A stretch of 57,434 bases of DNA from an uncultured Bdellovibrionales bacterium (GTDB taxonomy: Bacteria > Bdellovibrionota_C > UBA2361 > JBGSMV01). The position numbers and the translations under genes are program-made. This document shows, piece after piece, positions 2,003-24,580 of the stretch; the first letter of the stretch is position 1, and each line of letters opens with the position of its first letter. The notes below the pieces were generated by a model that searched no databases, had not been told where the DNA came from, and saw nothing but the letters and a program-made list of their open reading frames with translations. The DNA lies in NCBI GenBank assembly GCA_964631745.1, contig CAZVWV010000003.1, positions 1 through 57,434 of the forward strand. The letters run 5' to 3'.

Positions 2003-2048
2003 GCCTACTTGCCGTCCCCCAGTCCTAGCGGAAATATATGACTCCACT

Positions 2049-2103: not shown

Positions 2104-2104
2104 T

Positions 2105-5218: not shown

Positions 5219-5816
5219 GGTTCTCAGGCAAGGCACCGAAAATCAATTCCCATAGTTTGTCCGGCTGGCTTGATAGAATCAGAGCTTTTCCAGCCACCTG
5301 GAAATCGTCAGAAAGCGCCAGCAGGCGCTCTTTGTGTTCTTGTTTATTGAGTTTGTCAGTCTTAGTTAGCACCACCTGTAGATTTTTCTCTACTCGATTT
5401 GCCAATTCCAACACTGAAATTTCATCTTGGGCGGGAGCGCGCCTACAATCTTGCAAAAGCAAGATTGTTTTTAGCTGTTTGCGTTCCAAAATATAATCGA
5501 CGATCATTTTGCTAAATTTTTGGCGGTCTTCTTTAGAGAGTTTTGCGTAACCGAATCCGGGAAGATCTACGAAATGAAAGGTCCTAGTGCGATTGGAGCA
5601 ATCATCAGCGGCTATCTTATAAACGTTAAAGGTGCGGGTTTTCCCTGGCGTTGAGCTTGAATGCGCTAAGGATTTTCTGCTTACCAGTTTGTTTATGAGG
5701 GTGGATTTGCCCACATTTGAACGACCGATAAAAGCCACCTCAGGGAAATCATGCTCAGGCAAATCTTGGGGTTCGGTCCAGGAGCCTAAGAAGTCGGCGA
5801 CTCTTATCTTAGTCAT
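5196..5816 (-). CDS. engB: Ribosome biogenesis GTPase YihA/EngB
   Basis: G1 GRSNVGKS, G2 PGKT, G3 DLPGFG, G4 TKTD. Confidence 0.93.
   Translation of the reverse strand: MTKIRVADFLGSWTEPQDLPEHDFPEVAFIGRSNVGKSTLINKLVSRKSLAHSSSTPGKTRTFNVYKIAADDCSNRTRTFHFVDLPGFGYAKLSKEDRQKFSKMIVDYILERKQLKTILLLQDCRRAPAQDEISVLELANRVEKNLQVVLTKTDKLNKQEHKERLLALSDDFQVAGKALILSSQPDKLWELIFGALPENLRQGDIL
5209..5233. terminator. Perfect 11-bp hairpin at the convergent gene junction, possible bidirectional terminator
   Basis: CCTTGCCTGAG-GTT-CTCAGGCAAGG; no clear U-tract. Confidence 0.4.
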
Positions 5817-5970
5817 TCGTATCGACCGAATTGGGGCTAGAATCGAGCGCGCGTGAAATCTTTCTATCGATAACGAAGAGATAGATGCAGATCATAAGCC
5901 ACAATACGGCGTAACCCCAAAATAGACTTGGAAAGGTGTTTGGAACTACTTCAAGTGTCTCGGGGTTCAT
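5809..5970 (-). CDS. ccmD: Heme exporter protein CcmD (53 aa, absent from the ORF track)
   Basis: Hand translation MNPETLEVVPNTFPSLFWGYAVLWLMICIYLFVIDRKISRALDSSPNSVDTND; one TM followed by basic residues; SD AAGGA; directly after ccmC. Confidence 0.75.
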   Translation of the reverse strand: MNPETLEVVPNTFPSLFWGYAVLWLMICIYLFVIDRKISRALDSSPNSVDTND

Positions 5971-6012
5971 ATTCTATTATTCCTTTTAACCTAGAAAGAG
6001 CAGTTGAATCTA

Positions 6013-6708
6013 CTACGGTTGCGAATATGTCTGAATCTCTTGAAGTTTTCTAGTTTCAAGCAATCCAATCTTATACCTTAACCAAATCAATTGAAACTGG
6101 AATATGATCATGGCGGCCATACCCACGAACATAGCTTCATAGAAGAGAGGATCGCGTAGTCCGCGATTGCCGACTACTTGAGGATGGAGCTGCGCCATGC
6201 TGGGCAGTAGTTGGATGGAAAAGACCACAATCGGAACTGTAATTGCGCCCAAAATGCCAAGAACGGCGCAGTGCTCCGGAAGTTTGGTCTTATCTCCAAA
6301 CACGCGCAACAGAATTAGCCCCAAGAATATGAGAAGCAAAATCAAAAATGTTACAAGCCGCGGCTCCCATCTAAACCAGGTATTCCAGGCGGCATGACCC
6401 CAGATCATGCCGCTGCTCATAACCATTGCGGCAAAGAGAAAGGCCACCTCAGAGGCTGCCTGCATTAGAATGTCAAAGCGCGCATCCCGCAGAGCGAGAT
6501 AGCCCAAGCTGCCTATCAGTATCACGGCCGCCGCACAATAACAGGCCATAGCGGCGCCCACATGAAAGTAGAAAATTCGCTGTACTGGGCCCATCAGGCG
6601 CTCATTTGGCACTACCATAAATACCAGATAGATCTCGTAAAGCATCAAGAAACCCGAAACGATCGTGAGTGTGCTAAAGCCGTATCTAGTTAAATAGTTC
6701 TGTTTCAA
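6013..6708 (-). CDS. ccmC: Heme delivery protein CcmC
   Basis: FYFHV His, WGHAAWNTWFRWEPRL Trp-rich motif, second His in QLHP; follows ccmAB. Confidence 0.9.
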   Translation of the reverse strand: MKQNYLTRYGFSTLTIVSGFLMLYEIYLVFMVVPNERLMGPVQRIFYFHVGAAMACYCAAAVILIGSLGYLALRDARFDILMQAASEVAFLFAAMVMSSGMIWGHAAWNTWFRWEPRLVTFLILLLIFLGLILLRVFGDKTKLPEHCAVLGILGAITVPIVVFSIQLLPSMAQLHPQVVGNRGLRDPLFYEAMFVGMAAMIIFQFQLIWLRYKIGLLETRKLQEIQTYSQP

Positions 6709-8337: not shown

Positions 8338-10329
8338 TTACGACCTTTCTTGAATCGCTGCGGCTATTCCCGCTGGGCTTAGCTCTTTGGCGCGCTCGGG
8401 AAGAATGGCGATCACTGTCCCGATCACCATAATAACTGTGCCCAACCAAAGCCACATCTGAAGTGGATTGATAAATACTTTCAGCGCCGCTCTGGTGCCT
8501 GAGTCATCTAACCCAATCATTACAATATAGACATCTTCTAAGAAGGTTTGTCGCAGGGCCACCTCCGTGGTGTTCTCCTGGTTGCGGACATAGCTCCTAA
8601 GCTCAGGTTTCATGGTACGTAGGAGTTTCCCATCTTTTACGGAGAGAAGGTCCAGTTTGGCTGTTAAGCTTGAATAGTTTGATTGCTGAGCTTCATCGAT
8701 TGATACAAGCTTTAATCTGAACTTTCCAAGGTCATACGATTCGCCGGGCTTTAAACTAAATTCCCGCTCGACTTTATGGGCCATGGAGGCTGTGATACCA
8801 ATGGCGGCAACAGTCACTCCCAGATGAATTAAGTAACCGGCGTATCTCACCCGGTGTCTTTTTAAGAGGCGTGGCAAATTATTTAATTTGTTAGAACCGG
8901 CCTGCTGCGCGCGTAAGCCGCGATGGATCTCTCCTAAAATTGTGAGCAGCACAAAAAAGCATAGCGAGTACGATAAGATCGGATAGAAACTTTGTATCCC
9001 CACAAACGTTAGCAGCACAGCTATCGCAAGAGAGAAAACGAAAGGCACAAGAAATGTTTTTCGCAAACTCTCAATCGAGGCTTGTCGCCACGCAATCAGT
9101 GGGCCGACCCCCATCAGAAAAATCAATAAAAGGAAGAGCGGAACGTTAACCGCATCAAAAAAGGGAATACTTACAGTCTGCTTGACGCCCGTCAGAGCCT
9201 CTGAGAGCACCGGGAACATTACTCCCCATAAGGTCGCAAACAGGACCGATAAAAAAACCAAGTTGTTTACTAAGAATGCCGCCTCGCGTGAGAAGAAGTG
9301 CTCAATCTTTTTGTCGGATCTAAGCGCCTGGCGGCGCACAAAGCACAGCGCGCATGTGGCCGTAGCCAATAGGCCCAGATAGACCAAAAACACCCAACCA
9401 ACATCAGTGTCTGCAAAAGAATGCACGCTTTGCACTACCCCACTGCGAGTTAGAAATGTTCCAAAAACCGTTAAGCCGTAAGTTAGCACTATCAGACCGA
9501 CATTCCAGGTCTTAAGCATGCCTTTGCGCTCTTGCACCATGACTGAATGCACAAACGCCGTGCCTGATAACCACGGTAAAAATGAAGCGTTCTCAACCGG
9601 ATCCCAGGCCCAAAATCCGCCCCAGCCTAACTCCACGTATGCCCAATGCCCGCCCATTACAATTCCGGCCGTCAAGAACGCCCAAGCGATCAGGGTCCAA
9701 CGACGCGTTATGCGAATCCAGTCGTTGTTAATATTTCCGGCCAACAACCAACCTAGGCAGAAAGCGTAAGGGATCGCAAAAGTTGTAAACCCAAGATAAA
9801 GTGTAGGGGGATGAATCACCATTAACGGGTTTTGCAATAATGGGTTTAGGCCGTTTCCGTCAGCGGGGATAAAGTCAGCTTTGATATATCGAAATGGGTT
9901 GGTCAGAAATAACACCACTGTTAAGAAAAACAGGAGCGATGTGTTTAAAACCGAAATGACATACGACATGGTTTGCCATGGATGCTCCTTGCTTCGATAA
10001 GCCACGATCGCAGATCCCACACTTAACATAGCGCACCACAGCAGCATGGAACCGTCCATGCCGCCCCAGATGGCAGAGATCTTGTATATGGGTTGCATCT
10101 CGCGGTTAGAGAACTGCCAGACATATTGCAGGGTGTAGTCATCGTGTAAGAATGAATATCCCAGTGCAAAGATAGCTAGAAAGGAAGTCAGGCAAACGAG
10201 AACTGTCGAAATTCTTGAGGAAAGAAAGAGATCGTATCGTTTCTTACTTCCGCCAAAATATCCGATGACCACTCCATACAGCGCAAGCAACCATGCAAGA
10301 GAGAGACAATAGCTTCCAAATTGTGGCAT
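8338..10329 (-). CDS. ccmF: Cytochrome c heme lyase CcmF
   Basis: WGGMDGS, GLNPLLQNP, HPPTLYLG, WGGFWAWDPVEN, SVHSF. Confidence 0.96.
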   Translation of the reverse strand: MPQFGSYCLSLAWLLALYGVVIGYFGGSKKRYDLFLSSRISTVLVCLTSFLAIFALGYSFLHDDYTLQYVWQFSNREMQPIYKISAIWGGMDGSMLLWCAMLSVGSAIVAYRSKEHPWQTMSYVISVLNTSLLFFLTVVLFLTNPFRYIKADFIPADGNGLNPLLQNPLMVIHPPTLYLGFTTFAIPYAFCLGWLLAGNINNDWIRITRRWTLIAWAFLTAGIVMGGHWAYVELGWGGFWAWDPVENASFLPWLSGTAFVHSVMVQERKGMLKTWNVGLIVLTYGLTVFGTFLTRSGVVQSVHSFADTDVGWVFLVYLGLLATATCALCFVRRQALRSDKKIEHFFSREAAFLVNNLVFLSVLFATLWGVMFPVLSEALTGVKQTVSIPFFDAVNVPLFLLLIFLMGVGPLIAWRQASIESLRKTFLVPFVFSLAIAVLLTFVGIQSFYPILSYSLCFFVLLTILGEIHRGLRAQQAGSNKLNNLPRLLKRHRVRYAGYLIHLGVTVAAIGITASMAHKVEREFSLKPGESYDLGKFRLKLVSIDEAQQSNYSSLTAKLDLLSVKDGKLLRTMKPELRSYVRNQENTTEVALRQTFLEDVYIVMIGLDDSGTRAALKVFINPLQMWLWLGTVIMVIGTVIAILPERAKELSPAGIAAAIQERS

Positions 10330-10376
10330 TTTGAGAAATTAACGCACCTAAGCTGTTTTAGCAACTGAGCGCGGGC

Positions 10377-12656
10377 TCACCAAACCTGATAGCTCTTTGA
10401 AAATAGCTTATGGGCCCGATCAAATAAGAACTGGCGTTGCGCCAGGTAGAGCTGGTTGGAAACCGGCGTGTCCTTTAATCGAAGCAGAAATAAAGAGGGG
10501 TTATGGAATCCGTACGCTCCGGGGCGATTCTCAATCCAGTCCACGATCTCGAAGTCTTTGGCCAAACGTTCAACGCTGCGCGTTGCAGCCAGAGGAGCGC
10601 CTGGGCAAAACCGTAGGCATGCAAAGCTCATGTCGGATACGAGAAGATATTGAATCTGACGTTTACGGAGATTCTCAGGGGTGAGCTCCTTGATGTAGGC
10701 GTTGATGAGCGGCCTTGTGTTAGGATAGCTGACTTGCAGGGTATTGGGCGGAAATAGCGGGGTGTTGAAGGGGTGATCGGCCATGATAGGCGTGTTGGCA
10801 GGGAGCTCCCGCAACACTGTCCCAGCCAACAAAGTTCTGGTGTCTGGCTCAATATTCTGTAAGAGCAGGATAGTTCTTAGCGCCACTATGCACATCACCA
10901 GCAGGGCGCTAATTTTGCCGAACCAACCTGACCGTAAAAGTTCCATCAAAAAGATAGCGGCGCTCATCAGTAAGAACGGGATGCAGGGCAAGATGTAGCG
11001 TTCCACCTGTGGCTCTACCTTTGCTGATACAGCTTCGGCAGCTAGGTAAAAAATAAGCGTAGTTACTGCCATCCAGCGCATCTGGTGGGCCTGTTTCAAA
11101 ATCACCCCAATTCCTGCAAGGCCACACCAAAGCAGTGGCTGGGTGAGGGCAGGGATTAGGCTGCGTGTGAAGTGGTACATCCACCATGTTTGCCAAGGAC
11201 TGATGGCGATGGAGTCGCCGATTAGCATGTGCTTGCTTTCGTAGGTGATACCTTTCAGGAAGTTTGAAAAATCGAGCAGGGCATAGGGAGTCGTAATTAG
11301 AAATCCGGTAAGAGTCAGCGAGGTTACAGTCAGGATATTCTTGAGGGACCCTCTCGGGTTGGATAGCGCCTGCCCTAACAATACCAATGTAGTAGGAAGT
11401 AACATAATTATTGCGGTGTATTTGCTTCCAAACGCAAACCCCACAAAGAGAGCGTGTACCACCAGATCGCGAGTCGTATTGCGGCGTATGAATCTGGACA
11501 GGAAGTAAGCGCTCGCCAGCAACATAAACACTAGCAGCACATCCTCCTTAAGGTACCGGCTGCAAGTTAGGTGTAGCGGGTTTATGCAAAGCAAAAACGC
11601 CGCCGCGATACCGGCGCTAGCTTTCCCGAATTCCCGAAGTGTGAAAAATACAAATGGGACGCTAAGTGTGCCAAAGACAGCGCTCACAACTCGGCCAGCT
11701 AGCCGCACATGCATATCGTCCAAGGGCCAAGCCAAGAGATGGTGTGCTAGCCAGGCTGTTCCAGAGGAGAGATAAAGTAGTAAAGAAGGATGCAGGAAGT
11801 ATTCCGGATTTAGCGAAGCTCGCTGAAACATGCCAAGCACGGCCAGCACTTTCCAACGCTCATCATGATGGTAGGTGGCAGGAGTATCAAAATCGATCCC
11901 CCACAGTCGAAGCGCCAGTGCTAAGGCCGTTATAAAGAAAAGGGATGGGAGTTGCCAATTTCTAAGGTGGGCATTGTCCGGAACATGGTCCGGAAAGACT
12001 TCTTCGCCACGAGGGCAGAGGCGCAACCCGAAAGAGAAAAAAGTTATTATGAGCGCCCAAGCCGTAAAGTAAGTCAGCGTTTCCCAGGTAAGGCTCTGAT
12101 ACGATACGAGGGCGGCTATACATGTGAAAGAGGTGAGAGCGCCAAAAGTTAGTATTCTTCCCAAGCTGATAATAGTTATCAGAGATATCAGCCAGATTCC
12201 GAAGGCTAGCTGAAATTCAGGAAGCGCAAAACCGAATCGCGAAGTGACTTCGCCGGAAACTAACTTAACACCTAGCTCTCGATCTCCCGATGAGATGGGG
12301 TTCTCGATCAGAAATGTAATCTGCGCTTGGCCGCAGCTTTGATCTATAGGAATGGTAATGGCTTTTGTATTCGATACGACAAATCGACCGACTTCGTGAT
12401 TGCAGGAGCTGACTCTGACCAGGGCATTTCCGGCCCCCTCGGGTCGCCAGCTGTCAAAGCTGATTTTGGCTTGGCTTCTTGCGCCTATGCCGCGAAAGTT
12501 CAGAGCGTCGCCGCTCTTAAGCCAACCATCGGCGGAGATCGATAGCGCTAAGTTGCTGCGAGGAGTAACGGCAAAAGGCTGCTTTGCAACCTGAATAGAA
12601 AAAATCGCGCTAACTAAGAACGAAAGAAAAAGCAGGTAATATATGTTTGTTTTCAC
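10377..12656 (-). CDS. GT-C fold glycosyltransferase (PMT_2/GT39-like) with N-terminal extracytoplasmic domain
   Basis: LRLWGIDF...YHHDE, NPEYFLHPSL, GSKY, ERYILP; many TM segments. Confidence 0.8.
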   Translation of the reverse strand: MKTNIYYLLFLSFLVSAIFSIQVAKQPFAVTPRSNLALSISADGWLKSGDALNFRGIGARSQAKISFDSWRPEGAGNALVRVSSCNHEVGRFVVSNTKAITIPIDQSCGQAQITFLIENPISSGDRELGVKLVSGEVTSRFGFALPEFQLAFGIWLISLITIISLGRILTFGALTSFTCIAALVSYQSLTWETLTYFTAWALIITFFSFGLRLCPRGEEVFPDHVPDNAHLRNWQLPSLFFITALALALRLWGIDFDTPATYHHDERWKVLAVLGMFQRASLNPEYFLHPSLLLYLSSGTAWLAHHLLAWPLDDMHVRLAGRVVSAVFGTLSVPFVFFTLREFGKASAGIAAAFLLCINPLHLTCSRYLKEDVLLVFMLLASAYFLSRFIRRNTTRDLVVHALFVGFAFGSKYTAIIMLLPTTLVLLGQALSNPRGSLKNILTVTSLTLTGFLITTPYALLDFSNFLKGITYESKHMLIGDSIAISPWQTWWMYHFTRSLIPALTQPLLWCGLAGIGVILKQAHQMRWMAVTTLIFYLAAEAVSAKVEPQVERYILPCIPFLLMSAAIFLMELLRSGWFGKISALLVMCIVALRTILLLQNIEPDTRTLLAGTVLRELPANTPIMADHPFNTPLFPPNTLQVSYPNTRPLINAYIKELTPENLRKRQIQYLLVSDMSFACLRFCPGAPLAATRSVERLAKDFEIVDWIENRPGAYGFHNPSLFLLRLKDTPVSNQLYLAQRQFLFDRAHKLFSKSYQVW

Positions 12657-13882
12657 GACTTAGTTCCAGTCTGAAATTTTGCAACGGCTGCATAAGCGTT
12701 ACAAAGTAACCAGGCGCAAGAGATACAAAGTATAGGATAGACCGGAGCCATGAATCTAATATTGCCATTTGAGACTAGACAATGCAGCAGTATGAAACTT
12801 AAAAACAGTACGGGAAAGATACGAGTCTGGCCGCCCATGATAAGCATGCAAACCAGACCGAGGCCGCCTAATATATAAACGATTGCATACTGAGAGAGCG
12901 CGCGCCGATAAAGCGCCGCGGCCCAGGGCGCCTTAGCGTAAAGTTTTGGTAAGATAATGTTCGTAATTTCAGAAACCGGGTCCGTCGAAAATATATTTCT
13001 AATGCGCGCTAAATAAATTTTGAGCGCTGCGGCGGGGTCGGACCTTACCTGGGCTATGATTTTCTCCGTAATATTACGGTTAATGGCGAATTCGTCTTGT
13101 TTTTGAGCGCGCAAGTCGGATACGAGGTCAGGTTTGTTGATGCCAAAGTCGGGGGCGTTGTGAGGACCAAAATTGGTTGAAAATAGTATGGGCGCGTGGA
13201 AGATCTTATAGTTTCGAATTCCCCAGAGCGATAAAGCCAGCAAGGGCAGTATCAGGACTAGAAATATCTTATTGTGCCGGTGCCGACCTGCCGAAAATAG
13301 GTATTGCCAAACAAAGAAGGCAGCAAAGACTACCGCAACCGGCTTGGTCATGATTGCAGTGGCTAACAGGGTAGCGCTAATGAATGCCAGGGGGAGGGAC
13401 CTGGCCCAGATCTTTAGGGCCAATATCGCTGTCAGTCCGGTGAGGCAAAAAGTAACCAAGCTCTCGCTCATCAAGAGCGGGAGCCATAAAATATGAAGAG
13501 CGAATATAAGGGCGGATAAGTTAGCGCGCAGGCGTCCCATCAGCGGAGCAAGGCAGAAAATAGTTGTGAGCGTGAGTAGATCAAAAATTAAATTGAGATA
13601 TAGCCCAAGCTTTGGTTGATATCCCAGCACTTTAAAAAATCCCGCTAAAACAAGCGCATACCCCGGCATGCGGTAAGCCCGAAAGGTCATGCCCTGATAC
13701 TCTGGGCTTTCGCCCTGATAAATCTGGATGTAGCCCTCACCGTCAATCAGATTTTTAGCAAGGGTTTGGTAGTCACGGCTATCTGAGAGCGCTTGCCATT
13801 CGACCTGGCTGACGAAAAACAGCCGTATCGCCAGCGCGAATATAAGAATAGCAATCTCTGGAAGAAATTTGTAAGTCTTCAC
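12653..13882 (-). CDS. GT-C fold glycosyltransferase (ArnT/PMT_2-like)
   Basis: LSDSRDY, RMPGY, LMSESL, RFMAP; multi-TM; 4-bp overlap with the next gene. Confidence 0.78.
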   Translation of the reverse strand: MKTYKFLPEIAILIFALAIRLFFVSQVEWQALSDSRDYQTLAKNLIDGEGYIQIYQGESPEYQGMTFRAYRMPGYALVLAGFFKVLGYQPKLGLYLNLIFDLLTLTTIFCLAPLMGRLRANLSALIFALHILWLPLLMSESLVTFCLTGLTAILALKIWARSLPLAFISATLLATAIMTKPVAVVFAAFFVWQYLFSAGRHRHNKIFLVLILPLLALSLWGIRNYKIFHAPILFSTNFGPHNAPDFGINKPDLVSDLRAQKQDEFAINRNITEKIIAQVRSDPAAALKIYLARIRNIFSTDPVSEITNIILPKLYAKAPWAAALYRRALSQYAIVYILGGLGLVCMLIMGGQTRIFPVLFLSFILLHCLVSNGNIRFMAPVYPILCISCAWLLCNAYAAVAKFQTGTKS

Positions 13883-13933
13883 CGTAGGTTAGGGCGCAGT
13901 ATATTTCTAATGCGGTGAATAGTAAATCGGCGC

Positions 13934-15394
13934 TTATTCTTGGCCGACTCTGTCAGCCGTGATACTGCTGCTTTCGTGTAGCAATCCCATGACCTCGCTC
14001 TTTATCTCAGGAAAGCTTCGCATGCGGATGGTTGTGGTGTTCACAGCCGCCGAAAACTGATCGAGTTCTTTGCGGGCGTTTACGACCTGCAGCAAAAGTT
14101 CATCAAAGATGGTTACAAAAGCCTGTGCTTTATTGACGCGTGCCGCCTCAACCTTGCCGGTGACGTGCACTAGTTCAAGGGTGCGCAGTCCACTGCCTAA
14201 AAGGTCTAGCTTAGTGAGCATCTTGTTTAAACCCTCGTACACATGTGTCAAGGCTTCAAAGACGCTGCGTGAGCTGTGAGAGACGCAGGCTAAAAGCGTT
14301 TGCACGTTGAAGCTATCGGCGGGGTCTTCCTTGATCCCGTCTTTGTTGTTTTTTGACATTTCGCGGATGAAATCCAAAGCGCTCTCGGTCTGAATGTTTG
14401 AGGTAGATAGTTGGAACGCTATCCCGCGTAAGTGCGGAGCCAGAGTATCGATATCCTTTTTTAATTCAGCGATAATGTGGGTGCAGCCATTTGAGTCATG
14501 ACTCATTAGATCGGCGACTGTGCCCAGTCCGCGTCCTTCGTCCAGCAGTTTCTCGGCAGCGATAATTGCATTGAGGCTTAAGAGGCGGATGTTTTGCGCC
14601 AATTTAAGTAAGAAGTCCGATTTCTTCCGCACAGCCGTGTTGAGTTCTAAGAAGGTATCTACATCGGAGAAGATAGTCAGGAGTTGCTCCCTAATGCCGC
14701 TACAGCAATTGTTGAGAGAACCGAGATATTGCGAGATTTTATCGACACCCGTTGCTTGGCCTACTTTTGCCACACTTGGCGTTGTGACAGAATTTGCATT
14801 CGATGATAAACCCGATGATAAACCCGATGATAAACCCTGCATGGTCTGATGGCGGCTGCGGATCTCTTCAAGCAATAAATATTGCATGAAATCGTCGTAA
14901 CCCGCAAAACCCTTGGAGGCCAAAATCTCAAGCAGCCGGTTGGTACTTTTCACCATGGCGCTCTTGCGGGTCTCGCCGGCATCTTCGGCCTTCTGTTCGA
15001 TTGCGCGTAGATCCGCATAGACCGTCGGGATTAGCGCAAACAAGGCCGACGACGGTTTGAGCCGAACTGATAGATAGCCGTTTTCAATCGGGCAAGCGGT
15101 AGCAACTACCCAATAAAATTCCCCGGTCTTGGCCATGTTCTTTACATAGGCGGCGATAGGTTTACCGGCTTCGAGGTAGTCCCAAAGCAATTTAAACACG
15201 CAGGCAGGCATATCGGGATGCCTAATCATATTGTGCGGCTTGCCGATCATGTCGGCCGAATCGTAACCGCTAATTCTCGTAAATACGGAATTCCCTGACT
15301 TTATAATGCCTTTGTTGTCGGTACAGGAGAAAAACAACTCTTCGATCCCGAATTCGCGCTCTTTATTAACTGGTATAATTTTGGGACGTGCCAT
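13934..15394 (-). CDS. Soluble Aer-type PAS protein with degenerate MCP-like signalling helices
   Basis: FFSCTDNKGII..GKPHNMIRHPDMP..VKN..YWV PAS_3; LSLNAIIAAEKLLDEGRGLGTVA resembles an MCP tip; no TM. Confidence 0.8.
   Translation of the reverse strand: MARPKIIPVNKEREFGIEELFFSCTDNKGIIKSGNSVFTRISGYDSADMIGKPHNMIRHPDMPACVFKLLWDYLEAGKPIAAYVKNMAKTGEFYWVVATACPIENGYLSVRLKPSSALFALIPTVYADLRAIEQKAEDAGETRKSAMVKSTNRLLEILASKGFAGYDDFMQYLLLEEIRSRHQTMQGLSSGLSSGLSSNANSVTTPSVAKVGQATGVDKISQYLGSLNNCCSGIREQLLTIFSDVDTFLELNTAVRKKSDFLLKLAQNIRLLSLNAIIAAEKLLDEGRGLGTVADLMSHDSNGCTHIIAELKKDIDTLAPHLRGIAFQLSTSNIQTESALDFIREMSKNNKDGIKEDPADSFNVQTLLACVSHSSRSVFEALTHVYEGLNKMLTKLDLLGSGLRTLELVHVTGKVEAARVNKAQAFVTIFDELLLQVVNARKELDQFSAAVNTTTIRMRSFPEIKSEVMGLLHESSSITADRVGQE
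14801..14837. repeat. 12-bp tandem repeat x3, in frame (GLSS)n
   Basis: CGATGATAAACC x3. Confidence 0.85.
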
Positions 15395-15615
15395 TCTTTA
15401 ATCCTTAGCTCAAAAAATAATGTTAGAAACTATGAGCCTAAGTAAACATCGTACGCGTGTAGAAATAGCTTGAGGGGTATCGCGGAGGCTCCTTGGACCC
15501 ATTGAATCTGGCGCTTTTTTGGGGGTAGGGAGGTTTGGCGAGTCTCCCTTTTCTGAAACTATCTCTGAATCCACTGAGGAATCCCCGAAACTCTGCTTGA
15601 GGTAGCATCCTTCCC

Positions 15616-17172
15616 ATGGAAAGGGCCAAAAAATTATTAATCGTGGGCGGCGGAGCGGCGAGTGTTTCTATTGTAAGAAGTTTGGTGATGGATATATTGC
15701 CGCAGCAACCGATGAAGCTCCCCCTAGAAATTGAAATTGTTGAACCCAGATCTGAGATAGGACCGGGGGTGGCTTTTAGTTCTACTTTAGAAAGTTCCCG
15801 GCTGAACATGCCCGTTCGGACAATGAGCATAACCCCTAAGGACTCTTTGCACTTCGCCGATTGGCTAAATTCAAAGTTCCCGCACCGCAATACAAACGAT
15901 CGATATTTGCCCAGAGCCTTCTTTGGACGTTATCTATCTGAGGACTTCAAATCCTCGATAACTTTGGCGGCACGGTTAGGAGTATCTATTACAACTTTCA
16001 AATCGGAATGTTTAGAGCTGAAACGAAAAGGATCGAGATGGCACGCCCTGCTTAGAAATGGAGAGCGACTAGGCGGAGACTATCTTATACTGGCCATTGG
16101 TAACCAACTACCGGCGGCTTATCCCGAACTCGTTCACACTTATCCCGAAATATATATGAATGACCCATGGTCCGACGGAAAAATCCTAGCGCAGGTTTCC
16201 CGCAACGATAGTATTCTAATCTTAGGAACAGGTCTAACCGGGATTGATGTGGCACTCACCCTTCTTGAACATGGGCATAAGGGAAAGGTGGTGTTGGTAT
16301 CTCGGTCGGGACGCCTTCCGCGCGTGAGGCCCCGTAGTTATGAGCAGCAAAGCAAGGTATTTTACAGCTTAAGCAATCTGCGCGAACTATTGCGAAAAGG
16401 GAGAGTAGGGGTGGTAAGTGTCGAGGACATCTTTGAAGCGATAAAAAGGGATACCGCGGGCGCCGGGCTTGACGATAACTCCCTCTTTGCCGAGCAAGAT
16501 TCCTTACCAGTATTACCTCAATTGATGCAGGATATTGACTTCGCGGATCGGCCGGATCATTGGCATGCAGTTATTAATCAAAGTGATCGACTCCTTTGCG
16601 CCTTATGGCCAGGCATTAGTTGCAAGGAGAGAGTTAGATTTCTGCACTCGCTTTATGGACTATGGGCTATTTGCAGACACCCAATGCCGCTTATAAATGC
16701 AAACCGTCTAACGAAACATCTTACCAGCGGAGCGCTTGAGGTTAAGGCGCTTCCCCCAAACTCTGCACCTGTAGTTGTCAACAAGAAGATCTTAATTGAT
16801 ATTGATGGAAGCAAGTGTTCCCCGCCCAGCGAGTTCGATAAGCTCATCGACGCTACAGGACCGAACATGATGATTGGGCCGCATTCTAGCAGCTTACTTC
16901 GCAATCTAGCGCGGGACGGTCTCGTCAAGCCCGACCCCTGCGCAGGCCTATCGGTTGATTTTGATAGCAGCAAGGTAATCTCAAATTCTGGCGCTATCGA
17001 TAATTCATTTTATGCCGTTGGGCAGATTACCCGTGGCACACATTTTTATACCAACTCGATGGAATCGATAGTTCACAAAGCTCATCAGATCGCAAAACAA
17101 ATCGCTTCTAAAATTGGCGTAAGCAGTGCTGAATGCACATATAGGGCAAAAGCCAATGAAATCGTCACTTGA
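15616..17172 (+). CDS. FAD/NAD(P)-binding flavoenzyme (NAD_binding_9/YdhS-like)
   Basis: IVGGGAAS, GPGVAF, RLNMP..MS, F..WL, YLPRAFFGRYL, second Rossmann GTGLTGID, DATGP, AVGQITRG. Confidence 0.85.
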   Translation: MERAKKLLIVGGGAASVSIVRSLVMDILPQQPMKLPLEIEIVEPRSEIGPGVAFSSTLESSRLNMPVRTMSITPKDSLHFADWLNSKFPHRNTNDRYLPRAFFGRYLSEDFKSSITLAARLGVSITTFKSECLELKRKGSRWHALLRNGERLGGDYLILAIGNQLPAAYPELVHTYPEIYMNDPWSDGKILAQVSRNDSILILGTGLTGIDVALTLLEHGHKGKVVLVSRSGRLPRVRPRSYEQQSKVFYSLSNLRELLRKGRVGVVSVEDIFEAIKRDTAGAGLDDNSLFAEQDSLPVLPQLMQDIDFADRPDHWHAVINQSDRLLCALWPGISCKERVRFLHSLYGLWAICRHPMPLINANRLTKHLTSGALEVKALPPNSAPVVVNKKILIDIDGSKCSPPSEFDKLIDATGPNMMIGPHSSSLLRNLARDGLVKPDPCAGLSVDFDSSKVISNSGAIDNSFYAVGQITRGTHFYTNSMESIVHKAHQIAKQIASKIGVSSAECTYRAKANEIVT

Positions 17173-18125
17173 GGAGAATGGGTTGTATGAAGGCAGATAA
17201 CAAAGACATGGGAGTGGCGTTTTTTATCGGAAATGATCTTACCTCATATATTCTCGCCTACAGAACAGCCGAAGATCTGATAAAGCTAGGGATTCGTGTA
17301 TTGGTAATATCGGTTGAGTCCGTCAACAAGAAGTCAGCAAAGCCTCCGTTGATATTAAGTGAGTTTCTTTTTTTCGAGAGATCGTTACTCAATCAGCACG
17401 TAATTCCACTATTAGATAGCTTAGCTCCTTCGGAGAAGCGCCCCATTAAAAGCCTGGGAGTGCTAAGCCACCGATCTGGTGGTCGGTTGTCTCACATCCG
17501 GGTTAGCAAGGTAAATTCCTCGGAAACAGTGGATGCGCTTCGTTTTCACCGAATTGGTGTTGGTCTATCAATTAGGTGTTATCAAAAATTTGGAGCATCT
17601 ATAATTAGCTATTTTACTGAGATAGCCAAAGGTGAACCTGCTGCCCTTATGAATTTGCATCCTGGACTATTGCCGAACTATAGAGGAGTGATAACTTTCT
17701 TTAGGGCCATGCAAAATCGAGAGACACAGGCGGGGTTTACCCTACATTATATTGACCTGGATTGGGATGCGGGGCCAATAATTCAGAGCTGGCCCATTCC
17801 GTTGGATTACAAGAAGTCGGTTTTAGCTAATATGATCGCTGCCGGACAAGAGATTTGCTCCAGCACTGCCTCTTGCTTGGTAGAATGTTTGGAAGGGAAT
17901 CACCCAAAATGCTTCAAACAGGAGAAGGACCTGGCGCATTACTACACATTTCCCTCTGAAGAGGAACTGTATGCTGCGAAGCTAGCAGATATAAATCTTT
18001 TTAAACCTGAAGATTTTACCAATCTTTACTGCCAGTGGTTTGCGCAAGACCAAGACATCCTTTGCAATAATCTAATCTCAACTTTAAAGGAACTACCATG
18101 GCAAATGGATTTTATGATGTCGTAG
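17169..18125 (+). CDS. N10-formyl-THF-dependent formyltransferase family protein
   Basis: Catalytic NLHPGLLPNYRG and TLHYIDLDWDAGPII motifs; overlaps both neighbours. Confidence 0.85.
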   Translation: MRRMGCMKADNKDMGVAFFIGNDLTSYILAYRTAEDLIKLGIRVLVISVESVNKKSAKPPLILSEFLFFERSLLNQHVIPLLDSLAPSEKRPIKSLGVLSHRSGGRLSHIRVSKVNSSETVDALRFHRIGVGLSIRCYQKFGASIISYFTEIAKGEPAALMNLHPGLLPNYRGVITFFRAMQNRETQAGFTLHYIDLDWDAGPIIQSWPIPLDYKKSVLANMIAAGQEICSSTASCLVECLEGNHPKCFKQEKDLAHYYTFPSEEELYAAKLADINLFKPEDFTNLYCQWFAQDQDILCNNLISTLKELPWQMDFMMS

Positions 18126-19501
18126 TCGGTTTACAGTATGGTGACGAAGGCAAGGCTCGCATCGTGGATTCCCTTGCGGATCAATATGATATTGTGGCGA
18201 GGTTTAACGGAGGCGCCAATGCCGGCCACACGGTCCAGTCTAAAGGTGTAAAGCTAGCGCTGGCGCAGATTCCCTGTGGTGTGTTGCATGGTGACAAAAT
18301 TCTCTATATCGGATCGGGGTGCTTACTCTCTCTTAAAAAGCTGAAGGATGAACTGGATGCTTTGAGCGCAATCGGCATCGACCTGGAAGGACGCTTCTTG
18401 ATCTCGCCGTTTTGCTCGGTGGTGCAACCACACCAGATTGCGCTGGATCTATTGGATGCCGCTCACCTGGGCACTACAGGCAATGGAATGGGTCCGGCAT
18501 ACGCCGATCGAGCTAGGCGGGCTTACCAAGGCTGTTTACTCAATATCCGATTTGGCGAACTCTTATCTAAGCAAGATAAAATGCTCGCCCAAATGCGGGC
18601 CAACTGGCACCAGCATGCCAATAGTTTGGAGACGCTCGAGTTTGATCTCCCAAGTTATATTGAGCAAACCGCCGAAACCTTAGAGGCGCTAAATAAATAT
18701 GTGGCTCCGCACGGTTTGTATTTGCAGGAGCAGTTGCAGAAGGGAGCCAGGGTTGTTTTTGAGGGCGCACAAAGTGTGATGTTGGATGTCGCGCGCGGTA
18801 CCGTTCCGTATGTTACTGCAAGCCATACATTTCCCAGCTACGCCTGTTGTGGAGGGGATGTTTCCCCGAAATTTTGTCGAAAGATTATTGGGGTCGCCAA
18901 GGCGATCATGTCCAGGGTCGGCCACGGGCCATTCCCCTCCGAGCTTGGCGGAAGACGCTCTGAAGAGTACTGCATGCTGGATGCCGGCAAATTCAATACC
19001 AGAGAGAAGGAGAGCCTCCAATACAATCCCCGGGAACTACTGCAAAGAGAAGGCGATTTTGAATTGGGGATAGCGCTCAGAATGCTTTGCGGTGAGTACG
19101 GGACCAAAACCGGACGGCCCCGCAGAATAGGGATGCTTGACTTAGTGCAGCTGCGTTACGCGGTGAATGCTTGCAGTGTTGATCAATTATTTTTAAATCG
19201 CTGTGATTTATTACCTCTTTTTAGCAAGAGCCAGTACGAGGCCGTTCCAGTCGTAACGGCATACTCCTCAGCGCAAAATAGCATCGGAACCGGAGAGGCG
19301 GAGTTATTCTCTTACACGGATGCCACTAACTCTGTAGAGTTATTTGAATCCTTCGACATAAACGAGTTGTCAAAGCACAGCTTGCCTGAAGGCTTACAGG
19401 CATTGGTGAATCGCATTGAAGTTTTTTGTGGGTGTTCTGCTCGAGGTCTTGGAATTGGCCCAGATCGTGAAGAGATCCATTGGCGCTCGTCTGTTTGCTA
19501 G
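18098..19501 (+). CDS. purA: Adenylosuccinate synthetase, atypical clade
   Basis: GLQYGDEGK, GGANAGHT, GTTGNGMGPAY, EGAQ, GPFPSEL, EYGTKTGRPRR, GPDRE. Confidence 0.9.
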   Translation: MANGFYDVVVGLQYGDEGKARIVDSLADQYDIVARFNGGANAGHTVQSKGVKLALAQIPCGVLHGDKILYIGSGCLLSLKKLKDELDALSAIGIDLEGRFLISPFCSVVQPHQIALDLLDAAHLGTTGNGMGPAYADRARRAYQGCLLNIRFGELLSKQDKMLAQMRANWHQHANSLETLEFDLPSYIEQTAETLEALNKYVAPHGLYLQEQLQKGARVVFEGAQSVMLDVARGTVPYVTASHTFPSYACCGGDVSPKFCRKIIGVAKAIMSRVGHGPFPSELGGRRSEEYCMLDAGKFNTREKESLQYNPRELLQREGDFELGIALRMLCGEYGTKTGRPRRIGMLDLVQLRYAVNACSVDQLFLNRCDLLPLFSKSQYEAVPVVTAYSSAQNSIGTGEAELFSYTDATNSVELFESFDINELSKHSLPEGLQALVNRIEVFCGCSARGLGIGPDREEIHWRSSVC

Positions 19502-19508: not shown

Positions 19509-21191
19509 TTAGCACGCTATTGGTAGCTGATAAAGGCCAGCGCATCGGCCAAGAAAGTTTACATAATCATCAGTCTTGACCATCATGTTAGTAACTCCAT
19601 CCAAAATGGCAGGATTCTGGACTAATGCCAGCCAGGCGTCCCGTACGGCAATATCGAGCGCTTTTGCGCGTGCGTCCGAAAACGACTTATGCGCAAAAAG
19701 AAAGCTTTCCTTTCTGTAAGGTGCATCATCATTTGCTGTAACTACGGTACAGCTGTTATACAGCTCGCTAAACCGGCAATTTGGGAAACAAACGATGCCT
19801 CTTAAATCCGGATCTCCACTCGAAAGCGCTTTAGTAACTTCGTCTGCTTCCATATGTCGAATGGCTAAGCGCCGCTTATCAACCAGCTGTTGATCGATAA
19901 GTTCCTCAAGCACGAAAGCAGCCGTTGCGGGGGGATCCGATAGTAGCAGATATTCTCCATAGCTGTACGGCTTAGTGCGGGATTTTATGGCGTTGTTGGG
20001 TACGATCGTTTTGTGACCAACTTTGGGAAAGCCCATCAGAGAATAGTAGGGCACTTTGCCTCTGCGGCCCAGCACCATACCCGCGGATGGAAGCGTCAGC
20101 ACGCAGGCATCCGGCAAATCGGTTAGCTCGTTATTAGCCAGGCGTTGAAAGATCTCTACGGAATGAGAGAACTTGTAACGAATTTCTAGATTATAACCTT
20201 GATAATGTTTCAAATAAAGAAATACTGCGATCGCCCCAACGAAGGTCGGAGGAATTGCTACAACGATAGGACGGTCGGCCGTGAGAAGACGTCTCAAATG
20301 AAGCTCATCATAGGAACTTCCAAGTCGATTGGCGCCGATCAGGTGAGAATCGATCTCGCTTACAAGCGTTGTTCTGGTTCCTGCCATCTTGACGAATGTC
20401 TTATTACGACTAATCTTTCGAATCGTCCGCTCATACTGACTGCGATCGAAAATTTCAGTATGTCTTAAGGAACTAAGAATCTCGGAGCGGAAGGCCAGGC
20501 GCATTTTATCTTTGACTGTCTTTAGAAATGTTTTTGAAACAAAAATATTGTTATTGTCATCAGGTTTGGCGATAGGTAGGAAAGGCCCCGGCGCTCGTTC
20601 GCTTGTTGAGGTAAAGCGGCAATTAGTTGCGGGGCTAGGTACGCGGTTCAATCGATTTGCCTCACTCTCTTGTTCGATAAGTAGAGCCATATGCGCAATG
20701 CTGCGTGCATCGGAAATAGGGCGATCGTCTAAGTAAACCCGGATTTCATCTCTTAAAAGCAATTTTTGATTAACCCATATAATTACCGGTCCGACTCTCT
20801 TTCGCTCCGGATTTTGTCGTTTGAAGAGTCGCTTAATCATCGGGGTCCCGCATTTCAGTGTACCGAACATATCGGCAAGCCAACGGGTCTGTTTGCTAAT
20901 GGCATAATCAAGTGACGACGCTGGAGAAGCCGCTTCTCCAGCTATCTGCCCTATGGTTTCCAGTGAGATGGACTCCTCCGAAAGATCGCCCTGCATGGCG
21001 GCTGTTCTCAAAAGTAGTGTCGCCAAGGCTTGCACCGCTGGCGTCCATTGGAATGTGCAATCATTCTTCAGGGAAGAGAAACCCTTTCCGCGCGTTGCAT
21101 AGCGCGACTTTTCGAGAGCAGGATGTTGAAATTTTGTTGCCTGAAGTTCAGGGCGTAAAGCATTTGCAAACCACAGGCTCAATTGAGTCAT
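19509..21191 (-). CDS. Hypothetical 560-aa protein, possible regulator with C-terminal PBP2-like ligand-binding domain
   Basis: Long ORF; basic N-terminal domain, low-complexity linker, alpha/beta C-terminus; no certain family. Confidence 0.7.
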   Translation of the reverse strand: MTQLSLWFANALRPELQATKFQHPALEKSRYATRGKGFSSLKNDCTFQWTPAVQALATLLLRTAAMQGDLSEESISLETIGQIAGEAASPASSLDYAISKQTRWLADMFGTLKCGTPMIKRLFKRQNPERKRVGPVIIWVNQKLLLRDEIRVYLDDRPISDARSIAHMALLIEQESEANRLNRVPSPATNCRFTSTSERAPGPFLPIAKPDDNNNIFVSKTFLKTVKDKMRLAFRSEILSSLRHTEIFDRSQYERTIRKISRNKTFVKMAGTRTTLVSEIDSHLIGANRLGSSYDELHLRRLLTADRPIVVAIPPTFVGAIAVFLYLKHYQGYNLEIRYKFSHSVEIFQRLANNELTDLPDACVLTLPSAGMVLGRRGKVPYYSLMGFPKVGHKTIVPNNAIKSRTKPYSYGEYLLLSDPPATAAFVLEELIDQQLVDKRRLAIRHMEADEVTKALSSGDPDLRGIVCFPNCRFSELYNSCTVVTANDDAPYRKESFLFAHKSFSDARAKALDIAVRDAWLALVQNPAILDGVTNMMVKTDDYVNFLGRCAGLYQLPIAC

Positions 21192-22090: not shown

Positions 22091-24580
22091 ATGACGATTA
22101 GCGATTCACGGGATGTGCCCATCCGATTTGCGGTCGTGTGTGGCGGGCCGTCTGGAGAGCGTGGCATTTCATTAAATAGCGCCCGGTCGGTTCTCGATCA
22201 TATTGGTCAACATTTCCCTGATCTCTCCCTCTTCTATTTCGATAGCCATCTAAACGCTTATTTAATCTCTGCTGAGCACGCCTATTCCAATACGCCTGAT
22301 GATTTCGATTTTAGACTGCAATCAGGTGAATTTGCTTCGCCGCTCTCGGCAGAAGAATTCGTGAATGAGATTCGACGGCATGATTTAGTCTTCCCTGTAA
22401 TTCATGGAGCATTCGGCGAAGATGGTGGTTTGCCTGCATTGCTCGAACGCGCTGGTATCGCTTATGTCGGTGCAGATCCCCAGGGTTGTATTAATGCGTT
22501 TGACAAAGCCAGAGCCAAGAGTTTGATCAGCAAGGCCGGGCTATTAACTTTGCCGTGGATAGTAGTCGAGAGCGATGAAATCGGGAAAAATGAAAACGGA
22601 GGAAAGTCGAGCACTGGCTTGACGCACACGGCCTTGGCGCGCATTCAAGCGTTTTTTGAGCAACAGCGCACGGAGAGATATATTGTAAAACCAAGTCGCG
22701 GTGGGTCAAGCTTTGGAGTGCAAGTCGTAAGTTCAGCTGATGAGGCGGCCAACGCAGCCGCAAAAATATTTTCACAGGGATATTACCAAACAGCCATTAT
22801 AGAGCCACTGTGTACAGGGACAGAATTCACCGTTGTGGTTATGCAAAATGTTGTAGGCCAGCCTGTAGCGTTGCTTCCAATCGAAGTTGAAAAGCCCACG
22901 GGTCATGAGATTTTTGATTATCGCTTAAAATATCTTCCCAGTACCGAGGTGGCTTATCATTGTCCGCCCCGTTTCGAAGTTGCGGTTACGGAACAGATTC
23001 GTTCAGGTGGCGAACAGATTTTTAGCCTTCTAGGTTTACGCGATTATGCGCGCATTGACGGATGGCTGCATAACGGTGAGATCTATTGGTCGGATTTTAA
23101 CCCTATCAGTGGTCTTGAACAGAATAGTTTTTTCTTTATACAAGCAGCTAGAGTTGGCTTGAGTCATCGACAGGCTTTAACGCTATTGGTATCGAGCGCG
23201 GCTAACCGAAGCGGCCTTGCGCTCTTACCTGGTTTGGGTTCTATCGAGTTAGAAGTCGCTAAGCGGAAACAGAAGGTGGCAGTTTTGTTTGGCGGAAACA
23301 CTGCTGAGCGCCAGGTATCGGTCATGAGTGGCACTAACGTCTGGCTAAAATTGAAGAGTTCGGATCGCTTTGAACCTATCCCTTATCTGCTTGATCGTGA
23401 TGGCACTATTTTTGAGGTGCCCTACCCGTTTTGTTTGTATCATACGGTCGAAGAGATATCCGCCGCCTGTCGTAGCGCTTTGCAGAGGGAAGACGCCTCG
23501 ATGGAGTTAGAGATCTTTAAACTTAGAGAGCAGCTTCGTTGTCCGAGCAGCGGCTTCTCATCGCTTATTCCGCGGCCTACCAGTTTGGAAGAGATCGCGG
23601 CAAACCATGACTTCGTATTTCTTGGCTTGCATGGCGGTGCGGGCGAGGATGGGACTATTCAGCTGGAACTTGAGAGGCTTGGAGTCGCATATAATGGAAG
23701 TGGTCCGAGTAGCTCAGAACTTTGTATGGATAAATATGCCCTAGGTTTGCTCGTCGATAGAGCTAATCTTCCTGGCGTTTCAACCGCTGAAAAGTATCTT
23801 CTGGACTTAAATCAGCTTGATAATTTAAGTACCTCCGAACTTTGGGGGATGCTTCAGAGAAAACTTAGTGGTCCTTCCGTATTGGTGAAACCCCGCGCCG
23901 ATGGGTGTTCCTGTGGCGTGGCTGTACTTCATTCGGTTGCTGATTTGGCGAATTATCTTACCGCGATCGAACGTCAGCTTGAACATATTCCTCCGCATAC
24001 ATTAACCGATCAGCCGAATCCGATTGAATTGCCGAGTTCTAAGTCGTCGCAACTGCTTTTTGAAAGATTCGTTGTCACGGATCGTGTTGCGGTGCGGGAC
24101 GGTGTCTTAGATTGGGAGCACCGCTCAGGTTGGATTGAGCTAACAGTCGGAATATTGGGGTCGGGGAGAGATCTTAAAGCTTTAGATCCAAGTTTGACGG
24201 TTGCAAGTGCTGGTATCCTATCACTAGAAGAGAAATTTCAAGGCGGGACAGGCATTAATATTACCCCGCCGCCAAGTGAACACATAAATCCTCAGATATT
24301 GGAGCTTATAAAAACAAGGGTCGCGCAAGTTGCAGTGCTGGCTGGCGTCGAGGGATACGCCCGCATGGATATCTTTGCGAATGCAACCTCAGGGGAAATT
24401 ATAGTAATTGAGATTAACACCTTGCCTGGTCTTACCCCGTCCACGGTACTGTTTCAGCAGGCGCTTGCAGACCGCGCCTTCAAAAGGCCAGTAGATTTTC
24501 TTGAGGCCCTTATCGATTTGGGTATGGCTGCTCGACGTGAGCGTGGCGACTTGCAGAGTCCGGAAGCGTACAACAGCTGA
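22091..24580 (+). CDS. ddl: D-alanine--D-alanine ligase with two tandem ATP-grasp units
   Basis: GGPSGERGISLNS / HGAFGEDG / VKPSRGGSS / FDYRLKY / ARIDG, then GGNTAERQVS / LHGGAGEDG / VKPRADGCS / ARMD / EINTLPGLT. Confidence 0.88.
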   Translation: MTISDSRDVPIRFAVVCGGPSGERGISLNSARSVLDHIGQHFPDLSLFYFDSHLNAYLISAEHAYSNTPDDFDFRLQSGEFASPLSAEEFVNEIRRHDLVFPVIHGAFGEDGGLPALLERAGIAYVGADPQGCINAFDKARAKSLISKAGLLTLPWIVVESDEIGKNENGGKSSTGLTHTALARIQAFFEQQRTERYIVKPSRGGSSFGVQVVSSADEAANAAAKIFSQGYYQTAIIEPLCTGTEFTVVVMQNVVGQPVALLPIEVEKPTGHEIFDYRLKYLPSTEVAYHCPPRFEVAVTEQIRSGGEQIFSLLGLRDYARIDGWLHNGEIYWSDFNPISGLEQNSFFFIQAARVGLSHRQALTLLVSSAANRSGLALLPGLGSIELEVAKRKQKVAVLFGGNTAERQVSVMSGTNVWLKLKSSDRFEPIPYLLDRDGTIFEVPYPFCLYHTVEEISAACRSALQREDASMELEIFKLREQLRCPSSGFSSLIPRPTSLEEIAANHDFVFLGLHGGAGEDGTIQLELERLGVAYNGSGPSSSELCMDKYALGLLVDRANLPGVSTAEKYLLDLNQLDNLSTSELWGMLQRKLSGPSVLVKPRADGCSCGVAVLHSVADLANYLTAIERQLEHIPPHTLTDQPNPIELPSSKSSQLLFERFVVTDRVAVRDGVLDWEHRSGWIELTVGILGSGRDLKALDPSLTVASAGILSLEEKFQGGTGINITPPPSEHINPQILELIKTRVAQVAVLAGVEGYARMDIFANATSGEIIVIEINTLPGLTPSTVLFQQALADRAFKRPVDFLEALIDLGMAARRERGDLQSPEAYNS

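Follow-up and report, generated by a model that had tools for sequence, protein, structure and literature searches.

A predicted flavin N-hydroxylase and formyltransferase module, and its linkage to adenylosuccinate synthetase in an uncultured Bdellovibrionales bacterium

Introduction

In bacteria, the pairing of an N-hydroxylase with a formyltransferase is known from PvdA and PvdF, which together give an N-formyl-N-hydroxy group. The PvdA/PvdF, CchB/CchA and Rmo/Rft pairs, which lead to N5-formyl-N5-hydroxyornithine, each combine a flavin N-hydroxylase with a formyltransferase that depends on formyl-tetrahydrofolate (formyl-THF). Hadacidin (N-formyl-N-hydroxyglycine), a compound of Penicillium, has been known since the 1960s as an inhibitor of adenylosuccinate synthetase (AdSS, or PurA), where it competes with aspartate, and classical labelling derived it from glycine via N-hydroxylation and then formylation. 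This report concerns a three-gene operon at positions 15616 to 19501 of a 57,434-nt stretch of contig CAZVWV010000003.1 (assembly GCA_964631745.1) from an uncultured Bdellovibrionales bacterium; that whole stretch is referred to as the window, and all positions are given in its numbering unless another locus is named. The operon is predicted to encode an amine N-hydroxylase (gene 1), a formyltransferase (gene 2) and PurA (gene 3). An earlier, sequence-only reading of the window had taken it for a candidate hadacidin-like antimetabolite cluster with a dedicated resistance copy of the target. The explanation favoured here, to which we give a probability of about 0.4, is that genes 1 and 2 form a formohydroxamate module which, where it is coupled to purA, would make an aspartate-site inhibitor of PurA such as hadacidin, buffered by the native target enzyme.

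With the siderophore pairs, the module shares its predicted chemistry. It departs from them in the family of its hydroxylase, which is PF13454 (the FzmM/CreE type) rather than the PF13434 of SidA and PvdA, SidA itself matching at a template-modelling (TM) score of only ~0.57; in its surroundings, as no nonribosomal peptide synthetase (NRPS) or siderophore genes lie near it; in its form, as it is often one fused protein followed by small-solute exporters; and in its substrate, which is probably a small acid and not ornithine. The enzymes FzmM and CreE of the nitrosuccinate pathway are the closest to gene 1 by both profile and structure, and share with it an Asn at the catalytic site and an architecture of three domains, one of which is a helical substrate domain. 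However, gene 1 is only ~18 % identical to them, its helical domain is ~100 residues shorter, and its partner is a formyltransferase rather than a lyase of the CreD/FzmL type. At the level of genes, the resemblance to hadacidin of Penicillium extends to the predicted product class, the link to PurA, the two-step route from glycine and the presence of fused homologues in ascomycetes, although the fungal homologues that were found do not come from known producers. Hydroxamate modules composed of a hydroxylase and a formyltransferase are therefore already known, and what sets this one apart is the hydroxylase family, the frequent fusion, the exporters in place of NRPS genes, and the wiring to purA in two lineages. 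In the literature searched, there was nothing on hadacidin biosynthetic genes or on a glycine N-hydroxylase, and no account of an FzmM/CreE-family hydroxylase that works alongside a formyltransferase; a resistance role for AdSS within a gene cluster came up only in a passing remark on a Hypoxylon cluster.

The predicted hydroxylase and formyltransferase

The three genes of the operon are as follows.

15616..17172, + strand: gene 1, predicted class-B flavin-dependent amine N-hydroxylase (PF13454, FzmM/CreE superfamily), 518 aa
17187..18125, + strand: gene 2, predicted N10-formyl-THF-type formyltransferase, 312 aa from ATG 17187
18098..19501, + strand: gene 3, adenylosuccinate synthetase (PurA) of the 'long' clade, 467 aa

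The product of gene 1 matches NAD_binding_9 (PF13454) at E 1.9e-29 and has two GxGxxG dinucleotide motifs, GGGAAS at residues 11-16 and GTGLTG at residues 204-209. When a profile of the module family was compared with solved structures, the sole strong match was 8CP2 (E 1.3e-28), the L-aspartate N-hydroxylase FzmM (PMC10404684). The same structure is the best Foldseek match (E 2e-23, TM 0.72) of the AlphaFold model of gene 1, which has a mean predicted local distance difference test (pLDDT) score of 80.8, and the top 50 Foldseek matches listed for this model are N-hydroxylases throughout, including SidA, DesB, PvdA, KtzI and putrescine N-monooxygenase. A purine- or urate-hydroxylase role for gene 1 was also considered and rejected, the structural neighbours of the model all being amine N-hydroxylases. 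A search with the C-terminal 318 aa of the flavoenzyme returned 12 distant relatives, annotated as HpyO/YdhS-like.

FzmM binds aspartate by means of arginines R13, R266, R276, R409, R412, R416 and R577 (PMC10404684). At the Arg13 position, gene 1 has Ala, and the module family has Ala or Ser throughout; within the cluster R266/R276/R409/R412/R416, only the R266 position is Arg in gene 1, the alignment of the helical domain being unreliable at 18 % identity. The catalytic-site residue Asn62 of FzmM has its equivalent in gene 1 as N64. Based on the structural comparison, gene 1 is predicted to be an amine N-hydroxylase with FzmM as its closest solved relative, in keeping with the sequence-only reading; it is not demonstrably an aspartate enzyme. 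The analogy to aspartate N-oxidation, which had been drawn in the same reading, is not indicated, because the aspartate-binding arginines of FzmM are not evidently kept. No nitrosuccinate lyase (CreD/FzmL) or fumarase-type gene is present in the window or at the other annotated module loci.

Gene 2 matches Formyl_trans_N (PF00551) at E 2.4e-10, a match limited to the catalytic half. It carries NLHPGLLPNYRG...DAGPI, which matches the HP(S/G)LLPxxRG folate motif and the Asn-x-His...Asp triad. The triad residues are N162, H164 and D200 in the numbering of the 318-aa open reading frame (ORF), and are invariant in an alignment of 31 family members, so that the intact triad reported earlier is indeed there. 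The structural model of gene 2 (pLDDT 82) is matched in Foldseek by Fmt, the ArnA N-domain, the FDH hydrolase domain and WbkC (of the sugar N-formyltransferase type), with E ~1e-11 and TM ~0.55. The triad together with the Fmt/ArnA-like fold of the model supports the prediction of a formyl-THF-type transferase, as had first been proposed.

A conserved two-enzyme module

The flavoenzyme gene lies directly upstream of the transferase gene at 17 loci, the adjacent pairs including those of Kutzneria buriramensis, an alphaproteobacterial metagenome-assembled genome (MAG), several metagenomic lineages and an Enterobacterales lineage represented by nine loci. A scan of a genome collection gave only three loci, and a metagenome scan gave 80 with ~23 true family members. 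Relatives of the transferase numbered only four in a word-indexed search, and an exhaustive profile search with the transferase family raised this to 463 cluster representatives at E <= 1e-30. Many of the 463 combine both domains in one protein of 780-880 aa, NAD_binding_9 being N-terminal and Formyl_trans_N C-terminal. Two ascomycetes, Bacidia gigantensis and Sphaerulina musiva (XP_016762519.1), have such fusions as uncharacterized proteins, and bacterial fusions of 832 aa (locus L012, from an alphaproteobacterial MAG) and 938 aa (L015) were also found; in all fusions seen, the hydroxylase precedes the transferase. Because of this domain fusion and the conserved gene order, there is strong evidence, drawn from gene arrangement, that the predicted hydroxylase and formyltransferase are functionally coupled and belong to one pathway. 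The family is large and lacks annotation; its smallest versions consist of one fused protein, and its cultured members include Enterobacterales, actinomycetes and fungi.

The genes that accompany the module elsewhere give some indication of what it does. In the nine loci of the Enterobacterales lineage, a TauE/SafE gene lies 3' of the transferase and a divergent AraC regulator lies alongside, the cassette AraC-N-hydroxylase-formyltransferase-TauE/SafE being situated between pmbA and rnk (L025, L027-L030 and L032-L035). In L030, the module occupies about 8541-11654, and the pmbA of this lineage is 78 % identical to that of Escherichia coli at the DNA level; a search of 5,426 E. coli genomes found neither a hydroxylase nor a transferase gene of this kind, and gave a distant match for the TauE part of the cassette only. 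LrgA/LrgB genes follow the fusion in two loci, one of them within a tRNA-adjacent island that has a conjugative coupling protein, and a major facilitator superfamily (MFS) transporter is found near family members in two loci, in one of which (L014) it precedes the transferase. Transporters and AraC regulators that recur in this way are consistent with a pathway of few steps whose product is a small metabolite, probably an anion, that leaves the cell. The plasmids searched contained no transferase homologue.

Several of these loci have features of their own. In L012, the segments 8435-11996 and 12557-17732 hold the 832-aa fusion and LrgA/LrgB together with a tRNA gene, HTH_3 regulators and genes for an M48 peptidase and a coupling protein of the TraG/TrwB type, so that by gene content the region looks like an integrative mobile island of this alphaproteobacterial MAG. 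On the chromosome of K. buriramensis DSM 45791 (L011, 8248-18658), an AraC regulator, the hydroxylase, the transferase and a 268-aa unknown protein are accompanied by a GH3-family amido-ligase, an alpha/beta hydrolase, an enolase-superfamily enzyme, an FAA hydrolase and an MFS transporter. Four loci, namely L013 (Mycobacterium gastri), L014, L019 and L026, have a full-length family transferase with no detectable N-hydroxylase alongside; in L019 (9944-13659), the transferase is two genes ahead of a PEP_mutase-family protein.

Linkage of the module to purA

Within the window, the operon is tightly packed. The longest ORF of gene 2 is 17169-18125 (318 aa, with a TTG start at 17169), and the 4-bp overlap between genes 1 and 2 that had been described results from choosing it. 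The junction is more likely a 14-nt gap, because GGAGA starts at the gene 1 stop codon with ATG 17187 lying 10 nt downstream, and because ATG 17187 is also the gene 2 start called on an independent contig. That contig, 3.5 kb in length, is the only other place where a protein identical to the window's was found. The remainder of the earlier description, i.e. three co-oriented genes with a 28-bp overlap between genes 2 and 3, stands; the overlap is judged genuine since AAGGA precedes ATG 18098 and the PurA N terminus from that ATG aligns with the N termini of homologues. Terminator-like sites and significant promoter-like sites were sought inside the operon, and none was found. A scan of 37 ORFs of the window for purine genes besides PurA likewise returned none, in line with the earlier statement that no others are nearby.

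Among the module loci examined, the window and L006/L007 are the only ones with PurA on the 3' side of the module. The L006 locus is a 144-kb metagenomic scaffold on which the order is flavoenzyme, transferase, PurA and malic enzyme, with a 2-nt gap before PurA. Compared with the window, its proteins are 27 %, 38 % and 47 % identical (genes 1, 2 and 3, respectively), and the flanking regions are unrelated. In a neighbour-joining tree, the window and L006 PurAs are not sisters, their common ancestor spanning 86 of 122 sequences; the linkage must therefore date back to a deep divergence and have been retained, or else have two separate origins. The nearest relative of the window PurA is the stand-alone PurA of an Oligoflexia MAG (54 % identity), and the nearest relatives of the L006 PurA are stand-alone PurAs at 72 % and 67 %. 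Conservation of the three-gene order, which the sequence-only reading had offered as a test of its proposal, is thus borne out to the extent that the order recurs in a second, deeply diverged lineage, and fails beyond that, as no other lineage has it and most module loci are without PurA. We regard the linkage as rare but recurrent and, judging from the gene order, as tightly coupled in both cases, which is more than chance would give, albeit in a sample of two.

In a relative of L006 (L096/L097), a PurA-malic enzyme pair that is 65-69 % identical to that of L006 lies collinearly among genes for PriA, SecDF and a tRNA synthetase, and the module is absent upstream. Because relatives have this pair without the module, the PurA of the L006 lineage appears to be the native gene, with the module having been added on its 5' side. 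PurA followed by NADP-malic enzyme is seen at three loci of this one lineage (L006 10894-13644, L096 1286-4031 and L097 2932-5014), and the pairing may connect malate and pyruvate with the fumarate that is released in AMP synthesis or by the purine nucleotide cycle. Elsewhere on the L006 scaffold, a large Tc/Rhs-type toxin locus (SpvB, TcdB_toxin_midN, RHS repeat and YD-shell) occupies 1-6550, upstream of the module, and an M48 peptidase is encoded two genes after PurA.

The 'long' PurA clade

The window PurA matches Adenylsucc_synt (PF00709) at E 9e-104 over positions 1-415 of the 416-position model, yet it is only 33 % identical to E. coli PurA and falls under every NCBIfam purA equivalog cut-off (313 bits vs 402 for NF002223, and 280 vs 396 for TIGR00184). 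This shortfall is due to an insertion and to changes that are clade-wide. The 120 best relatives of the window PurA are proteins of 448-546 aa, with 43-50 % identity; their named members belong to Gracilibacteria, Peregrinibacteria, Levybacteria, one DPANN archaeon and one Oligoflexia MAG, and have the annotation adenylosuccinate synthetase. Every long-clade PurA that was aligned has an insertion of ~39 residues after an SE..YCM motif, and the clade as a whole has GDEGKA for GDEGKG and N/TKCD for TKLD. At positions conserved in canonical PurA, the long clade, which spans the candidate phyla radiation (CPR), DPANN and Oligoflexia, shows G17A, R131N, R304P and S414G, with T300 being mostly Val. 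Seven other long-clade PurAs whose neighbourhoods were examined are alone among unrelated or housekeeping genes, as in ClpB-PurA-CNNM and YjgF-PurA. By sequence, the window PurA is an ordinary member of this large clade and not peculiar to the operon. The 'divergent PurA' of the sequence-only reading is consequently divergent with respect to canonical PurA, and clade-typical where it had been taken for a peculiarity of the operon. The long form with its 39-residue insertion is a normal housekeeping form in CPR, DPANN and Oligoflexia, which is a caution against calling such a PurA atypical.

Equivalents of E. coli D13, K16, N38, H41, T128/129, R143, Q224, T239, V273, T301, R303, R305 and D333 are all kept in the window PurA, and the same catalytic and substrate residues are kept in the L006 PurA and in 110 or more of the 118 members of the long clade. 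Two residues of the window PurA are rare, namely K337, which aligns with E. coli T300 and occurs in 0 of 118 relatives, and R368, which aligns with K331 and occurs in 1 of 118; neither is found in L006. A resistance signature common to the linked PurAs was looked for and rejected: no functional-site position sets them apart, and the residues that are both shared and rare are only K158, V220, L374 and E400. The idea of a dedicated, divergent resistance copy accordingly finds no support, as all aspartate-site residues are kept, the protein is sister to a stand-alone PurA, and there is no shared derived change in the active site. The locus does resemble cases of self-resistance by target duplication in that a housekeeping target is apparently encoded in, and co-transcribed with, a putative biosynthetic operon; it differs from them in that PurA, here and in the L006 lineage, looks native and has no resistance-type substitution. 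With PurZ and other substrate-changed PurA paralogues, the window PurA shares fold and Pfam family, but it scores 107 bits against a PurZ model cut-off of 300 and keeps the full set of PurA residues.

Proposed pathway and competing explanations

By analogy with known hydroxamate pathways, the product of the module is probably a small N-formyl-N-hydroxy (formohydroxamate) acid that is exported. The N-formyl-N-hydroxy chemistry put forward in the sequence-only reading thereby holds as a prediction, given the N-hydroxylase fold, the formyl-THF-type transferase, their conserved coupling and the transporters at other module loci. In the scheme proposed, whose reaction order, product identity and protective role for PurA we infer, an NADPH/FAD-dependent N-hydroxylase would act on some small primary amine, the likeliest being a small amino acid, to give the N-hydroxy derivative, and a formyl-THF-dependent transferase would then formylate the same nitrogen to give a small anionic N-formyl-N-hydroxy metabolite that would normally be exported. 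In the window and in one deeply diverged lineage, where the module appears translationally coupled to the organism's own long-form PurA, this product, on the most economical view, would be hadacidin or something closely similar in competition with aspartate for PurA; with the native target on the same transcript, PurA levels would go up each time the inhibitor is produced, such that protection would stem from target dosage and not from a resistant variant. A broader version holds that FzmM-type hydroxylase plus formyltransferase, whether as two genes or as a fusion, is the long-missing synthase of hadacidin, or of a hadacidin analogue, and widespread in bacteria and ascomycetes, and that some predatory or deltaproteobacteria-like lineages have wired it to their own PurA so that target dosage rises with it; we consider this broader version unlikely, and present it as speculation.

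If the proposal that the product is hadacidin or an analogue is true, the module would constitute a two-step enzymatic route to a purine antimetabolite, would serve as a simple marker for mining related formohydroxamates, and would illustrate self-protection via a co-expressed, unmodified native target instead of a resistant paralogue. Since that target would be unmodified and native, resistance-guided genome mining, which looks for diverged duplicates, would miss such a case.

A number of observations weigh against the proposal of a purA-coupled inhibitor pathway. On the side of the enzymes, the formyltransferase fold family also includes hydrolases, and the arginine cluster of FzmM is not evidently conserved in the hydroxylase, whose helical domain aligns unreliably. 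Neither the window nor L006 has an exporter close to the module. PurA is beside the module in only two of ~9 independent lineages that have a visible downstream gene, and the relatives of L006 have their PurA-malic enzyme pair without the module, so that the adjacency could be an accident of insertion. Lastly, the window PurA has no resistance signature, the residues of its aspartate/hadacidin site being all conserved.

In a second explanation, the module would make some other N-oxidized, formylated metabolite, such as a metal chelator, a building block or an antimetabolite with another target, and PurA would be a chance neighbour of a mobile cassette with no tie to purines. Module loci mostly lack PurA and carry transporters, AraC regulators or other enzymes, as illustrated by the GH3 ligase, hydrolases and MFS transporter in Kutzneria and by LrgAB in the tRNA-adjacent island, and no AdSS gene is found in the 10 kb around the fungal fusion gene. 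This explanation also agrees with the native status of the PurA-malic enzyme pair in the L006 lineage, which is found without the module in relatives, and with a window PurA that is ordinary for its clade. However, the same housekeeping gene is found directly 3' of the module, co-oriented and overlapping or abutting, in two lineages with non-sister PurAs of 47 % identity, an arrangement that chance is unlikely to have produced when any one of thousands of genes could lie there. To our knowledge, moreover, the only N-formyl-N-hydroxy natural product of this kind with a defined enzyme target is one that targets PurA, which also counts against mere adjacency. On balance, a chance neighbour is somewhat unlikely, though it deserves to be taken seriously. 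If instead the genes were for detoxification or catabolism, the transferase-fold enzyme would deformylate an incoming formohydroxamate such as hadacidin or pass its formyl group on, the flavoenzyme would oxidize the resulting hydroxylamine, and PurA would be co-expressed in defence. Formyl-THF hydrolases (PurU and the FDH hydrolase domain) with the same Asn/His/Asp triad do belong to the fold family, AraC-type regulators and transporters would suit inducible uptake and catabolism equally, and the link to PurA would be explained just as well. This direction of flux is nonetheless improbable, as hydroxylase-then-transferase, the order in all fusions, is the biosynthetic order of reactions, and the relatives of TauE and LrgAB are, by annotation only, mostly exporters or small-acid carriers. 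Furthermore, FzmM-family and SidA-type enzymes are known as biosynthetic primary-amine N-oxygenases (PMC10404684).

The sequence-only reading had itself suggested an alternative in which PurA is a pathway enzyme that ligates the modified amino acid (e.g. N-hydroxy-aspartate or N-hydroxyglycine) to inosine monophosphate (IMP) and gives an N6-substituted purine nucleotide. The closest solved relative of gene 1 does act on aspartate, PurA's own substrate, a further C-N ligase that depends on ATP, one of the GH3 family, lies downstream of the Kutzneria module, and the rare substitutions of the window PurA, K337 and R368, are near substrate sites. Yet the module looks self-sufficient, being usually without PurA and often a fusion followed by an exporter; an N-formylated amine would have no free nitrogen for ligation; the L006 PurA, orthologous to housekeeping PurAs, lacks the rare substitutions; and there is no PurB-like lyase or nucleotide-tailoring gene among the window ORFs scanned. 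A ligase role for PurA is accordingly very improbable.

Surroundings of the operon and other genes in the window

Upstream of the operon are the following two features.

15395..15615: divergent intergenic region of 221 bp upstream of gene 1, presumed from its position only to be the promoter/regulatory region
13934..15394, - strand: divergently transcribed PAS-domain protein, 486 aa, which may be a regulator or sensor

The intergenic region 15395-15615 has no consensus sigma-70 site and no match to an Rfam family at E <= 1, and Rfam searches of the sequence ahead of the operon, and ahead of five loci related to it, found neither a riboswitch nor any other RNA family. In the PAS-domain protein, PAS_3, PAS_9 and PAS matches fall at residues 22-106, and its long C-terminal part has no family match. 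On the other side, the operon adjoins a gene for a 560-aa protein (19509-21191, - strand) that has no Pfam or NCBIfam match. Neither the PAS-domain protein nor the 560-aa protein recurs beside the module at any other locus examined.

Further along the window, the gene at 22091-24580 (+ strand) encodes an unusual 829-aa Ddl-Ddl fusion, i.e. two complete D-Ala-D-Ala ligase modules in tandem, in which Dala_Dala_lig_N and Dala_Dala_lig_C are each matched twice and TIGR01205 scores above its cut-off. A homologue of HipA-family kinase toxins is encoded at 562-1917 (+ strand; E 7e-30 for the HipA N-terminal domain), and a 307-aa protein that resembles antitoxins of the MqsA family at 53531-54454 (+ strand). 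The genome has the look of a free-living organism of deltaproteobacterium-like or Oligoflexia-like kind, in that the window also encodes the type IV pilus proteins PilB and PilC, with Myxococcus-type best matches, as well as sigma-54 activators, RpoH and CcmF.

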